This document shows, in pieces, positions 3,464 through 20,799 of a stretch of DNA of 64,000 nt. Positions within the stretch are counted from its first letter, which is position 1. Each line of letters starts with the position of its first letter. The DNA is from an uncultured Clostridia bacterium. Its GTDB lineage: Bacteria > Bacillota > Clostridia > Oscillospirales > Ruminococcaceae. The stretch spans positions 22,652 to 86,651 of the forward strand of contig CANQPB010000006.1 of the NCBI GenBank assembly GCA_947625615.1, read 5' to 3'. The position numbers and the translations under genes are program-made. Below the pieces are notes generated by a model that saw only the letters and a list, made by a program, of their open reading frames with translations, was not told where the DNA came from and ran no database searches.

Positions 3464-4372
3464 TCAGCTTCGGGGGATCATGTCCTGCCCGGTGAGGGCG
3501 TCGATTCTGAAATAATCCGTGCGGCCGTCGGGGAATTTCAGCACCACCGAGTATACCGAGCTGCCGAGGCCGTCGCTTTTGGTTATCTCGCAAGCTTCAA
3601 GCTCGGCGGCGGCTTTTCCGTCAAGGCCGCCGCGCTCGGCCGCAATCTCTCTTGCCCTGTCGGCGGCCTCCTCCTCGGTGAGAAAATCTTCGGGGGTTAC
3701 GGCTTCAAAGCCGAATATCTCGCCGGTCGCGGCGTCGATCTCATAGGTGTTCGTCTTAAGATCGGTGGTCTTCGGGTAATCCATATAGCCGAAGAGGAAG
3801 CTTATTTTGTAGACGTTCCCCTCGAGCCTGCATGTCAGCCCGCTGACGTTTCTGCTCGTCAGGCCGGAATTTTCAAGCGCCACCGCTGCGGCCGCGGCCT
3901 CGCTGATAAGCCCGTCGGAGGCGTCGCCCGAAAGGGTCTGGTTCGGGATTCTTTCGTCGCCCGAATCCTTGGTGCAGTCGTATTCCTCCAGAGATATAAG
4001 TTCTAAGGTCTCGGGATCCAAAACCACCCTTATTCCCATGCCGGCGTCTTTGTTTTCAAAGGTGTATTCGCCGCCGGAGTTTCCGCCGGCGAAAGACAGG
4101 CCCTTTCCGTCCGCGCCGGCGTATTCCGCCGCCTTGGCTTTTTGAACGCTAAAGCCGTAGGTGCGGGTGATCTTCGTCGCCTCGCCGGTGACTGGATCGA
4201 GCAGCACCGATATCTGCGCGTCCTCCTCAAACGATTCCGCCTCGGAATCCGGGTCTTCATAATATTTGAAGATGACGATTATCACCGGCTCGTCATATTC
4301 GGCGACGGAATTACTGTCGTAATAGCAGGTTACGTTGAAGTTTTTCAGAATGCCGCCGCTTAACGTGGGGCG
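3464..4372 (-). pseudogene. 3' part of an interrupted anti-sigma-like / PepSY-repeat membrane protein gene (5' part at 19834..20799)
   Basis: The frame of ORF 3464..4285 stays open upstream to 4372 with no credible start or RBS. It contains PepSY-like repeats (..IDAATGEIFGFE.., ..RIDALTGQDM..). It joins in frame with 19841..20799 once the element is removed. Confidence 0.75.
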
Positions 4373-4418
4373 TCATAAGGAAGTTAAAACTATTTTTCCT
4401 GAAACGGCATAATTTCGG

Positions 4419-6053
4419 TTATGCCGTTTCTCTTTGCTTTTCCTCCCGCAAAAGCTCGTTTATAGGTATAAAGCCTATGAGATCATACTGAATCCTGATT
4501 TTCTGTTTCTTCTTGCCGCTTGACTTGTCAGGCTTTTCAACATAAATCGCCTTGACAAGCTCCCGCAAGGCATAAGGAGTAAGTTCGTTAAGTCCTTCGT
4601 ACTTTCTCGCCCTCTTGATGAACAACTCAAGATTTTCAGCTTGCCGCTCCTGCTCTGCAATTTCAGCCTGCAAGGAAATAATCTCGGATTTGAGTCTTGC
4701 CTGCTCATCTTCGTATTGCTCGCTCATCATTGCAAACCGCTCGTCGCTAAGTTTTGCTGCCACATTGTCCTCGTAAATCTTGATAAAGAGCCTATCAAGT
4801 TCTGCAAGGCGTTTCTCCTTTTGAGCAAGTTTACGCTTAGCACATTTAACGATTTCAGCACTTTTGAGCGACATTTTCTCAGTCATTACCTGCCGAAAAT
4901 AATTTTCATGAGCCGTAACATATGAAATCACGATCTGTAAATTATTCAGCACAAGCTGCTCCAAAACGACCGCTCGGATGAAGTGAATGGTGCAGCTCCC
5001 AGTATTGCTTTTGTAATTCCCGCACACAAAGTGGTCTTGTCGCTTTTCAAAGTCTTTAGTTGTGCAATACCTCATTTTTGCTCCGCAATCCTCGCAATAC
5101 ACCAGTCCCGAGAACATACTGCTTTTGCCTGTTCTTGTTCTGCGATGCCGCTGTTTACGGATCTCTTGCACCTTTTTGAACACATCGGGCTTAATAATTT
5201 CAGGGTGAGTGTTCTCGAAAATCGCCCAATTTTCCTCGGGGTTATCTCGCTGTTTCTTATCCCAAATCGAGTTGGTGTATGTCTTGAAATTCACCGTACA
5301 GCCTGTATACTCCTTGCGCTCTAAAATGTGAACGATAGTATTTGCATTCCAATGGTAAGGGTCTGAACTGAAACTTCTTGGACTTAACCCGTGAGCGTTT
5401 TTGTATGCTGACGGATTAGGGACTTTCGCAGCAGTCAGTGCCTTTGCAATCTGCATCGGGCCGCGACCTTCCATGCACATTTGGAAAATCTGCTTAACGA
5501 CTTCCGCAGATTCTTCGTCAACTTCCCATGCTCCGTTTTCGCCCTTTTTGTAACCATAAGGTACATTCGTTGTCAGCGGCACTCCACGAGACCCTTTCGC
5601 CTTTTGCACGGCTCGGATTTTGCGGCTGGTATCCTTCGCGAAGAACTCGTTGAACCAATTCTTTATTCCCGCCATGTCATTGTCCGTGCTGTTGGGGTCA
5701 ATCGTGTCAAAGTGGTCGTTGATGGCGATATAACGGACACCGTATTTCGGGAAAGTGAAGTTGATGTAAAGTCCTGTCAATGCCGAGTTCCTACCCAACC
5801 TCGAAAGGTCTTTGGTAATACAAGTTGATACATTACCTGCTTCGATTTCCGCAAGCATTTCTTGAAAACCGGGACGGTCGTAATTCGTACCGCTGTATCC
5901 GTCATCGACGAAAAACCGTGGGTTGGGAAATCTTTTTTCTCGCGCATATGCCTCAAGGACCATTTTTTGATTGGCGATCGACCCGCTCTCGCCCTCCAGT
6001 GCATCCTCTTGAGATAATCGGCAGTATAACGCCGTGATTTTGTTGGTTGCCAT
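4419..6053 (-). CDS. large serine recombinase (TnpX/TndX-like)
   Basis: [17 protein letters not shown]... carries the catalytic Ser motif. It has an N-terminal resolvase domain, a recombinase domain, Cys-rich [12 protein letters not shown] zinc-ribbon and a coiled-coil tail. The ATG at 6053 follows AAGGAGG. Upstream ORF-track residues were discarded. Confidence 0.9.
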
Positions 6054-6135
6054 GTTTACCTCCTTATCTTCGGCAACCGTCAGCGTTGAATTTAGCATTT
6101 CTATCATAACACATCTCCTTCCAAAATTCAATACT

Positions 6136-6372
6136 TTAAAGCAATAATTTTTGATCGTTCTCGAATATTCTTTCGAGCTTTTTGTGTAAAGGCTCGTCGC
6201 CAACAAATTCTGCGACAACGGTGTACTCAGTCCCGCCGATTGTTTGCTTGGTCGTGATGTTCGGAAGCCAGTAAGCGGACGGGTTCTGAACAATTATGTG
6301 ACCGTTCTCGTCAAACCGAATATTACGCTTGCTCGTGATTTCGGGCTTTTCGCTGTTCTTGTTAAATTTCAT
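6136..6372 (-). CDS. small TnpW-like transposon protein
   Basis: 78 aa, [24 protein letters not shown]...[12 protein letters not shown]...KKLERIF. The pattern resembles the TnpW family as I recall it (IG.T.Y.V..F....KL.R). It overlaps the relaxase stop by 11 nt. The ATG at 6372 follows GGAGAG. Confidence 0.5.
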
Positions 6373-18981: not shown

Positions 18982-19803
18982 ATGTATGCAAAACTTACAA
19001 TTCCCGAAAGATTAAAAGATTTAAGGGTAGTGCAAAAGCACTTGACTTTAGAAGAGTTGGCAGAACAAACTGGTCTGTCAAAGTCAGCTCTTGGCAAATA
19101 CGAAACCGACGACTATAAGGATATAAGTCCCTTTGCAATCGTCACACTCGCAGAATTTTATGGCGTTTCTACCGACTACTTGCTCGGTTTAACCGAAACA
19201 AAAAATCACCCAAACACAACTCTTAGTGAGTTGCATTTGAGTGATGGAGCAATAGATGTTTTGAAAAGCGGCAAGTTGAATAACAGGCTAATTTGTGAAA
19301 TCCTTTGTCACGAGAATTTTAGGCGGCTGCTTGTTGACTCCGAAGTTTTCGTTGATAGAATAGCAGAAATGCACACTGAGGAATTTACCTCGATCATGAA
19401 TGTCGGCAGGCTTCGCGTTTTAGAGAAAAACGGCGATATAAACAATTTAGACGCGCGGACTTTGGAGATTGCAGCGGAGGCAGACAAGCATTATATTGAG
19501 GGCGTTTTGATACAGGATTTGCTTTCGATTCTTAACGACATTAGAGAAAGACATTTGACTGACAACACGACTGCCGATGCTCCGTACACGGCAGACGAAG
19601 CCCAGAAAAAGATCGACGAGGTTTTGAATTTCAAGGGGAGTGAGCGAGAAAAACAGCTGTTTTTAGTCTGTAATCAACTGCAAATTCCATATAACACTTT
19701 GAAATCTGACGAGAAAGCTGCGCTTTTGAGTGCAATATCAAAGTCAAAGATTTTGGGCAAGTTGGGAAAGCACGGTAGGGGTAAGAGGAAGCATAAAAAA
19801 TAA
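18982..19803 (+). CDS. XRE-family transcriptional regulator with an extended C-terminal domain (CI/ImmR-like position)
   Basis: The N-terminal HTH_3 reads LTLEELAEQTGLSKSALGKYETDD...VSTDYLLGL, 273 aa in total. GTGAGGTGA precedes the ATG. It is the only plus-strand gene of the element. Confidence 0.8.
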   Translation: MYAKLTIPERLKDLRVVQKHLTLEELAEQTGLSKSALGKYETDDYKDISPFAIVTLAEFYGVSTDYLLGLTETKNHPNTTLSELHLSDGAIDVLKSGKLNNRLICEILCHENFRRLLVDSEVFVDRIAEMHTEEFTSIMNVGRLRVLEKNGDINNLDARTLEIAAEADKHYIEGVLIQDLLSILNDIRERHLTDNTTADAPYTADEAQKKIDEVLNFKGSEREKQLFLVCNQLQIPYNTLKSDEKAALLSAISKSKILGKLGKHGRGKRKHKK

Positions 19804-19829
19804 GGCAAGGATAATCCTTGCCCTATTTT
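19804..19829 (+). terminator. intrinsic terminator after the XRE gene
   Basis: GGCAAGGA-TAA-TCCTTGCC followed by CTATTTT. Confidence 0.5.
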
Positions 19830-19833
19830 CGCC

Positions 19834-20799
19834 CTAAATTCCGCTTGACGGGTGCCGTAATTTGAATTTTTTGATTGAAAACTTCTTTATGGACACCTGC
19901 CATACGTCGGGGTATTTTTCGATGACCGCTTCTTCGGCAAGGCGGTCGGCCTCGTCATAGCTGATTATCCCCTCAACCTTTTCGTGAAGGATCCTTTCAC
20001 CCTTAAATCCGGGGTCTTCGGCGACGCTCGGATTGCTGATTACGCTGCCGTCATAGCTCACCGTCGCGGTGTAGATGTAGCCGTCGACGCTTTTTGTGCA
20101 GATAGCGGTGCGGGTCTCGGGATCCGGCTCGATATCGGTATTCGTGAAGAAATTCAGTCCGAAGTATTCGTTGAATCTGCTCCTTATCAAAGAGTAATCC
20201 GGCGCCTCGTCGAGCTCCTTTTGCAGCTCCTGCTCCTGCCTCTGCTGCTCGGCCTTCTGGGATTCGAACAGATCGTCCCGCTTTTTCGCGAGCTCGGGGT
20301 ATATCTCCTCCCAGCCGGCGTCGGCCGCGCGGTCTGCGGAATACACGACTCCCGTCTTCGCGTCCACGACGATGTCATAGCAGTATCCGCAGGTGTTGAA
20401 GGAAATGCTGTAGACGATCCTGCCGTTTTTAAGCCCTAAATCTGCCTCGCCCGCCCCGAAGCTTTCGTCGTAGACCATTCCCCCGATAATCGCTTCGGCG
20501 AGCTCGGCCTTAAGCTCCGGGTCTGTCTCGTTTGAGACGATATAGGTCTTTGCCTGCGCGAGCGCGCTTTCGGGGTCGATAAGCCCGCTGAAGCTTACCG
20601 CCGTGACCGTCGCCGCAAGGGCGACGATAAGCGCCGCGGCGATAATCAGCGCTCTCAGCGGCCTGATATGTCTTTTTTCCGCCGTTTTTATCACAGATTC
20701 CTTTCTGCAGGGACATTGTCCGTAAACGGCCTCCGGGAAATCCGGCGCCGCTCTGTAAAAGGCCTCGCGTATGCGTCCCTCAAGCTCTCTTTTTTTCAT
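19834..20799 (-). pseudogene. 5' part of the interrupted anti-sigma-like / PepSY membrane protein gene
   Basis: MKKRELEGRIREAFYRAAPDFPE... with a single TM (LIIAAALIVALAATVTAV) followed by PepSY-like repeats. The start overlaps the ECF sigma stop (ATGA). It terminates 2 codons inside the AT-rich element (..HPSSGI*). Confidence 0.75.

Follow-up and report, generated by a model that had tools for sequence, protein, structure and literature searches.

The window analysed here is the full 64,000-nt stretch of contig CANQPB010000006.1 (assembly GCA_947625615.1), and all coordinates are positions in it unless a locus is named. On its minus strand, an extracytoplasmic function (ECF) sigma factor gene is followed by a gene for a 597-aa membrane protein, whose start overlaps the last four bases of the sigma factor gene. 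This second gene is interrupted at codon Val299 by an integrated element with a large serine recombinase (LSR) gene at its left end, a relaxase gene, a nonribosomal peptide synthetase (NRPS) gene cluster and a gene for a helix-turn-helix (HTH) regulator near its right end (Table 1). In the interrupted protein, a hydrophobic segment spans about residues 48-70 and the C-terminus carries a PepSY domain; for its family, NCBIfam gave 0 matches and a PDB profile search gave no meaningful match. Because of the position of its gene beside the ECF sigma factor gene, its predicted membrane segment and its PepSY domain, we refer to the protein as a putative membrane anti-sigma factor.

The ends of the element could be placed with the help of an empty site. 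The contig L001 from the ENA, which stems from another metagenome, encodes an uninterrupted homolog (P0001) and has no element at this position. Its gene order is that of the window, with ECF sigma factor, Mg-chelatase-like ATPase, M28 peptidase and GroES/GroEL as neighbours. L001 is 98.7% identical to the window and aligns with 26297-19903 and 4370-1, the ungapped match at the chromosomal attachment site (attB) ending at 4362 and resuming at 19903. The sole sequence common to attB of L001 and both window junctions is the dinucleotide TA, and there is no longer target duplication. Upon in silico removal of 4363-19904 an open reading frame (ORF) of 597 aa was obtained that is identical to P0001 in 589 of 597 positions without any gap. 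We conclude from these sequence comparisons that the gene is genuinely split by the element. The dinucleotides GT, TT and AC were also considered as crossover cores, and each requires a mismatch between a junction and attB; therefore, TA was taken as the crossover of the window element.

With this assignment, attB from L001 reads ..CAGAATGCCGCCGCT[TA]CGTCGGGGTATTTTTC.. (short form ..GCCGCCGCT[TA]CGTCGGGGTATTTTT..) and the attachment site predicted for the circular form of the element (attP) reads ..TATGGACACCTGCCA[TA]ACGTGGGGCGTCATAAGG.. (short form ..GGACACCTGCCA[TA]ACGTGGGGCGTCAT..). The predicted circle junction is ..CCTGCCATAACGTGGGG.. (longer form ..AACTTCTTTATGGACACCTGCCATAACGTGGGGCGTCATAAGGAAGTT..), and the sequence of the empty site is ..GCCGCTTACGTCGGGG.. 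(longer form ..TTTTTCAGAATGCCGCCGCTTACGTCGGGGTATTTTTCGATG..). The two attP arms are complementary in 14 of 25 positions including AACTTC(C/T)TTATG, that is, they form imperfect terminal inverted repeats. The arms of attB, with half-sites of the type ATACCCCGACG and, as reverse complement, ATGCCGCCGCT, are alike in about 9 of 25 positions, mostly within the inner 14, when compared by hand, and this type of pattern is seen again in the relatives.

A preceding sequence-only reading of this DNA had proposed an excisable element inside a gene, and in kind this was right: precise removal yields one long ORF with uninterrupted homologs. Several of its descriptions were also accurate, among them the minus-strand ORF 19834-20799 that terminates with ..KKFKLRHPSSGI and a stop codon, the reading frame of 3464-4285 that is open up to 4372, and the end of the LSR gene at 4419 near the left junction. 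The switch in GC content at both ends is real (0.557 left of the element, 0.424 inside, 0.545 to the right), but the right boundary lies at about 19904 and not at 19840-19846. The junctions had been sought in two copies of the decamer CCGCTTRACG. Both copies exist, CCGCTTAACG at 4356-4365 and CCGCTTGACG at 19841-19850, but they do not mark the junctions, as the empty site agrees with the left flank up to and including 4362 and, on the right, with the flank that starts at 19903. The right end proposed at 19846 is 57 bp too far in, the true end being 19902/19904, and the proposed length of 15,485 bp has to be corrected to the 15,542 bp given by L001.

The disputed 57 bp (19847-19903) are element DNA. 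They are kept at the ends of two related elements, L003 and L009, whose flanks are unrelated, and this also rules out a host-specific insertion as their origin. Removal of 4362-19846 does result, by computation, in an in-frame ORF of 1851 nt and 616 aa, but only since the misassigned 57 bp amount by chance to 19 codons without a stop. A search with this 616-aa protein, which the sequence-only reading had suggested as a check, recovered uninterrupted full-length homologs that span the junction (P0001, 597 aa, 99% identical; P0002, 596 aa; four more about 47% identical). However, all six read ..EKYPDV-SGGILKNF.. where the 616-aa reconstruction has the 19 extra residues WQVSIKKFSIKKFKLRHPS, and the actual length of the restored protein is 597 aa. 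A decamer match of 9/10 within the same search space arose in 7% of shuffles, and the second copy is a coincidence inside the element. Instead of the postulated 6-bp CCGCTT core, L001 shows the 2-bp core TA, and it is established for the family that serine recombinases use cores of 2 bp and not of 6 bp. An element bounded by the decamers thus retains virtually no probability in spite of their presence and the open reading frame across the deletion. Because its right end, core and length were wrong, the junction sequences derived from it (..AATTCCGCTTAACGTGGGG.. and ..GCCGCCGCTTGACGGGTGCC..) would not be found: the empty site exists but differs from the predicted sequence. Primers or read searches based on these junctions would have failed, and such failure might have been mistaken for a refutation.

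Table 1. Features of the interrupted locus and of the integrated element (window positions)
Feature	Position	Strand	Basis or remark
Target gene, codons 300-597 and stop	3464-4360	-	Without start codon at upstream end
TA crossover core, LSR-proximal junction	4361-4362		Last two bases common to left flank and L001 attB
Integrated element	4363-19904	-	15,542 bp including one TA copy; GC 0.42 vs about 0.55 in flanks; L001 empty site
P' arm of predicted attP, ACGTGGGGCGTCATAAGGAAGTTAA	4363-4387		Imperfect terminal inverted repeat with 19878-19902; conserved in 12 relatives
Large serine recombinase, 544 aa from MATNK (ORF open to 6293)	4419-6053	-	Resolvase, Recombinase, Zn_ribbon_recom and DUF4368 (Pfam)
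MobQ-type relaxase (MobA_MobL)	6362-7807	-	Pfam PF03389, E=9.7e-85; NCBIfam NF041496 MobQ, 256.9 bits (cutoff 200)
DUF3847 protein, upstream partner of relaxase	7807-8154	-	Pfam PF12958, E=1.8e-25
Stand-alone acyl carrier protein (ACP), cargo	8277-8507	-	Pfam PP-binding, E=3.9e-13
Fatty-acyl-AMP/CoA ligase-like enzyme, cargo	8500-10149	-	Pfam AMP-binding, E=1.9e-62
Dimodular NRPS C-A-T-C-A-T-R, 2410 aa, cargo	10161-17393	-	Pfam Condensation x2, AMP-binding x2, PP-binding x2, terminal NAD_binding_4 reductase
Small serine recombinase, resolvase/invertase type, 207 aa, cargo region	17585-18208	-	Pfam Resolvase, E=8.7e-29
Xre-type HTH regulator, backbone	18982-19803	+	Pfam HTH_3, E=1e-12; region conserved in L003
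Second CCGCTTGACG copy of the sequence-only reading	19841-19850		Internal to element, no junction; relatives read CCGCTTGATG
P arm of predicted attP, AAAACTTCTTTATGGACACCTGCCA	19878-19902		Conserved in L003 and L009 beside unrelated flanks
TA crossover core, LSR-distal junction	19903-19904		Bases 2-3 of target codon Val299; right flank matches attB onward
Target gene, codons 1-299	19903-20799	-	Followed by 22 element-encoded residues, stop at 19834
ECF-type sigma-70 factor gene	20796-21350	-	Pfam Sigma70_r2/r4_2; TIGR02937, 80.3 bits (cutoff 42.9)

In the LSR, the catalytic domain (PF00239, E=1.8e-21) is followed by the recombinase domain (PF07508, E=5.2e-24), a zinc ribbon (PF13408, E=1.7e-14) and DUF4368 (PF14287, E=3.8e-19). 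Among solved structures, the LSR matches the TnpX catalytic domain best (PDB 2mhc; E=7.5e-37), with about 57% identity over 115 residues in the region of residues 3-117, and the alignment covers the serine motif YCRLS (YxRLS). Comparison with plasmid records yielded at most 46% identity over the full length and no named transposon, and the NCBIfam XisF model matched weakly and below its cutoff. According to Durrant et al. (2022, PMC10083194), DUF4368 is the mark of a multi-targeting LSR clade to which TndX-like transposases belong, and the domain is rare among site-specific LSRs (0.73%).

Scanning of species-representative genomes with the LSR retrieved 80 loci. The closest of them (86-94% LSR identity) were almost all from metagenome-assembled genomes of rabbit-gut Clostridia, and the backbone family occurs mainly in gut Clostridia of rabbits and hares. 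In 12 loci with LSRs in this range of identity, the DNA resembles the window only as far as 4361-4368. These 12 relatives share the tail ..TTTTAACTTCCTTATGACGCCCCAC.. and then continue into unrelated sequence, with no mutual similarity between their flanks. The proposal of an LSR-mediated, site-specific integration was correct with respect to an LSR element in a coding sequence but has to be qualified with respect to site specificity. Nine loci at 91-94% LSR identity (L003, L004, L007, L008, L009, L035, L048, L049 and the window) have unrelated flanks, and in none of the 80 retrieved loci was an insertion found at the homologous target codon. LSRs within about 90% identity thus occupy more than three unrelated targets, albeit as relatives and not as the identical protein, and this fits the multi-targeting behaviour described for LSRs with DUF4368 (PMC10083194).

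Outward from the core, the flanks mostly follow one pattern: the core, 3-5 nt, GGGG(G) and then AT-rich sequence. The window target TA-CGTCGGGGTATTTTT as well as TA-CGCCGGGGGATATTTAT and TA-TGCCGGGGGATATTTAT are examples, and the pattern resembles the element's own P' arm, TA-ACGTGGGGCGTCAT. L003 and L009 are 7-8 kb versions of the element without the NRPS gene, whose far ends, including the 57 bp, align up to window position 19901-19902. Their target is an intergenic terminator-like hairpin, whereas in the window similar sequence is located within a coding region. L009 has TA at both junctions. In L003, where the target is partly duplicated and the locus is no simple insertion, there are two copies of the 27-bp sequence GCTTTAGCGTAACAAAACCCCCGGTTC (L003 positions 4411-4437 and 11716-11742), one at the far junction and one about 25 bp past the near junction, the latter followed by an intact-looking hairpin site. 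This repeat and the unequal junctions suggest that an earlier insertion left a remnant or that a tandem event took place. At L005 (11600-11640) the near end is directly followed by its own reverse complement, CTTCCTTATGACGCCCCGTCATAAGGAAG, which could be a palindromic target or the remnant of a head-to-head arrangement.

With L003 as a reference, 4363-8156 and 18978-19902 constitute the backbone of the window element and about 8157-18977 its cargo. Neither a coupling protein gene nor type IV secretion genes were found within 4363-19904 in the ORF list and by Pfam scan, and the element ORFs of at least 100 aa carry no further conjugation-related annotation. Possession of its own integrase and relaxase in combination with the absence of both a type IV coupling protein and a type IV secretion system from this interval characterizes an integrative mobilizable element (IME). 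Three close inverted repeats are present at 8188-8272, in the interval that separates the ACP gene from the DUF3847/relaxase genes, with the perfect pairs ATACCCCCAT/ATGGGGGTAT and TGCCCTGACTT/AAGTCAGGGCA; these could be terminators or a candidate origin of transfer (oriT).

Taken together, we consider 4363-19904 to be an IME of the TnpX/TndX-like, DUF4368-bearing clade of multi-targeting LSRs, with a probability of roughly 0.85. According to this model, the LSR would recombine attP of the circularised element with a site in the chromosome that happens to fall at codon 299 of the PepSY-domain protein gene just downstream of the ECF sigma gene. A 2-nt staggered cut at TA, subunit rotation and religation would leave TA at both junctions and no other duplication. 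The target would be picked for its likeness to a motif resembling the P' arm (core, 3-5 nt, GGGG, AT-rich run, rough dyad symmetry), and the interrupted gene would not be a dedicated attachment site. The same enzyme, probably without a helper, would excise the element, thereby restoring the gene exactly and releasing the circle. The MobQ relaxase and its DUF3847 partner could then nick at oriT and hand the circle over to a conjugative element in the same cell, whose mating pore it would use. These steps are modelled on what is known about serine recombinases and Tn4451-type elements.

A number of observations weigh against this interpretation. The junction dinucleotides of L003 differ from each other (TA versus TC). 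While hairpins are present at 8100-8272 upstream of the DUF3847/relaxase genes, none was assigned as oriT, and no oriT was identified. There is a single known insertion of the exact LSR, and multi-targeting is deduced from its relatives. The anti-sigma assignment draws only on gene position, predicted membrane segment and PepSY. Neither a circular junction, for which the sequence-only reading had also called, nor a second insertion of the exact window element was seen in contig pattern scans and exact-protein look-ups. Specifically, the element-end patterns gave 0 matches in viral contigs. The near-end pattern gave 13 in metagenome contigs, of which only four (from hare or rabbit) were related, none with a circular junction. 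The exact HTH regulator protein occurred elsewhere only on the 973-bp contig L083, which does not reach the junction, and the look-up of the exact relaxase protein returned no record. Finally, the crossover dinucleotide TA at 4361-4362 and 19903-19904 is palindromic. Such a core is unusual: the large serine integrases that have been characterised owe their orientation to an asymmetric one, and in Bxb1, the asymmetric central dinucleotide reportedly sets the polarity of integration. A palindromic TA would not fix the orientation of the window element in this way.

The most serious competitor is a strictly site-specific LSR for which the anti-sigma-like gene serves as dedicated attB, just as phage LSRs use one gene each. 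The single known insertion of the exact LSR is compatible with this idea, and so is a related element at L052 (11640-13600; LSR 86% identical): a 451-aa homolog of the target protein is encoded beside it, and the element ends about 28 bp past the stop codon of that homolog's gene. As in the window, this homolog adjoins an ECF sigma factor and an M28 peptidase; however, the position of insertion is different and the orientation is opposite. The nine loci with closely related LSRs in unrelated flanks, the lack of any insertion at the homologous codon among the 80 retrieved loci and the rarity of DUF4368 in site-specific LSRs render strict specificity unlikely. Even less probable is that we are dealing with an immobile remnant or an assembly artefact instead of a functional mobile element. 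The failure to detect a circular junction or the exact element elsewhere would agree with this, and the window possibly derives from a metagenome assembly. Nevertheless, the backbone ORFs are all intact, both att arms and both TA cores are preserved and the flanks stay in register with L001 down to the single base. A join made by chimeric assembly would not yield a junction of the recombinase type whose ends recur in 12 relatives.

Exact restoration of a split coding sequence is also a feature of domesticated intervening elements such as skin in sigK or SPbeta in spsM, where the host needs programmed excision by the LSR, and the interrupted gene is indeed part of a regulatory module with an ECF sigma factor. 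For the window element such a role is hardly credible: the gene is uninterrupted in the 98.7%-identical genome represented by L001, so that the element is not fixed in the lineage, the relaxase is intact and relatives move between sites. Furthermore, the target is no known sporulation gene and regulated excision is without support. A slightly better, although still very poor, chance is given to a speculative extension of the IME model, namely that the insertion is not neutral. By interrupting the putative anti-sigma gene in a reversible manner, the LSR would then provide a heritable on/off switch of the adjacent ECF sigma regulon, and the palindromic TA would permit integration in either orientation or flipping in place. 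If this were true, the LSR would be orientation-neutral, unlike Bxb1-type enzymes with a polarity set by an asymmetric core. The element beside the homologous sigma/anti-sigma pair at L052 could hint at a recurrent association.

Among the closest known systems are the mobilisable transposons Tn4451 and Tn4453, which occur in Clostridium perfringens and C. difficile and for whose excision and insertion TnpX alone suffices. Shared traits are an LSR with DUF4368, the similarity of the catalytic domain to that of TnpX, the recombinase gene at one end of the element, a 2-bp crossover, a target resembling the element's own joint and a mobilization gene without transfer apparatus. In contrast, the relaxase is of the MobQ/MobA_MobL type here and TnpZ is of the Mob/Pre type, the cargo is an NRPS cluster instead of catP and the size is 15.5 kb instead of about 6.3 kb. 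The crossover dinucleotide of Tn4451 is GA as opposed to TA in the window element, on which no other Tn4451-type genes (tnpV/W/Y) were recognised. The low full-length identity to any LSR in the plasmid collection is a further difference. TndX-like members of the DUF4368 clade such as Cp36 have the same domain architecture, and in that clade, too, close LSRs are spread over numerous unrelated targets with a common motif of more than a few bases; the example motif given in PMC10083194 has a TT core with AT-rich arms, whereas TA and GGGG-containing, terminator-hairpin-like arms are found here. IMEs of Firmicutes (e.g. PMC5357655) resemble the window element in their small size and in the combination of an integrase with a relaxase and its small partner in the absence of type IV secretion genes; the complete NRPS cluster as cargo sets the window element apart. 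The skin element (SpoIVCA, sigK), SPbeta (SprA, spsM) and the fdxN element (XisF) are likewise LSR elements in coding sequences with exact restoration. Their excision is tied to development and they are fixed or phages, whereas the window element appears mobilizable and is absent from the near-identical genome L001. It is well known that LSR elements can interrupt a gene and rebuild it when they excise, and the biology is as expected. The analysis contributes exact sequences for attB and the predicted attP, together with a target motif, of a family of TnpX-like recombinases from the lagomorph gut.

The cargo genes for ACP, acyl ligase and NRPS are predicted to direct the formation of an N-acyl dipeptide aldehyde. 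The starter C domain together with the acyl ligase and the ACP suggests an N-acyl tail, although all matches of the ligase-like enzyme to NCBIfam long-chain-fatty-acid ligase models were below the cutoffs. Dipeptide-aldehyde NRPS clusters of gut commensals are ascribed to Guo et al. (2017) in PMC8210680. As far as they are described there, the likeness consists in a dimodular NRPS ending in a reductase domain and does not imply membership in that family, and a difference is that no phosphopantetheinyl transferase gene is present on the window element. A complete cluster of the lipo-dipeptide-aldehyde type on a small mobilizable element would provide one route for its horizontal spread among gut Clostridia. 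At the edge of the cargo (17585-18561), the local GC content rises to about 0.51. In this region, a 125-aa ORF without family match overlaps the small serine recombinase gene, and the two may mark how the NRPS module was acquired.

Elsewhere in the window, a tRNA-Val gene at 58615-58690 is followed by a drop in GC content to 0.45-0.49 that runs to the window end (58615-64000). Among the ORFs past this tRNA gene are one for a C-5 cytosine DNA methylase (61360-62496) and one (62500-63534) whose product contains the polyvalent-protein domains LPD28 and DUF1281_C. The region may be a second integrated, perhaps conjugative, element and as such a candidate helper for mobilization. A sequence of 62 bp at 49646-49707 is a short dispersed repeat of the host genome: it shares 88.7% identity with the first 61 bases of L001, for which the other alignment lies near 26297.

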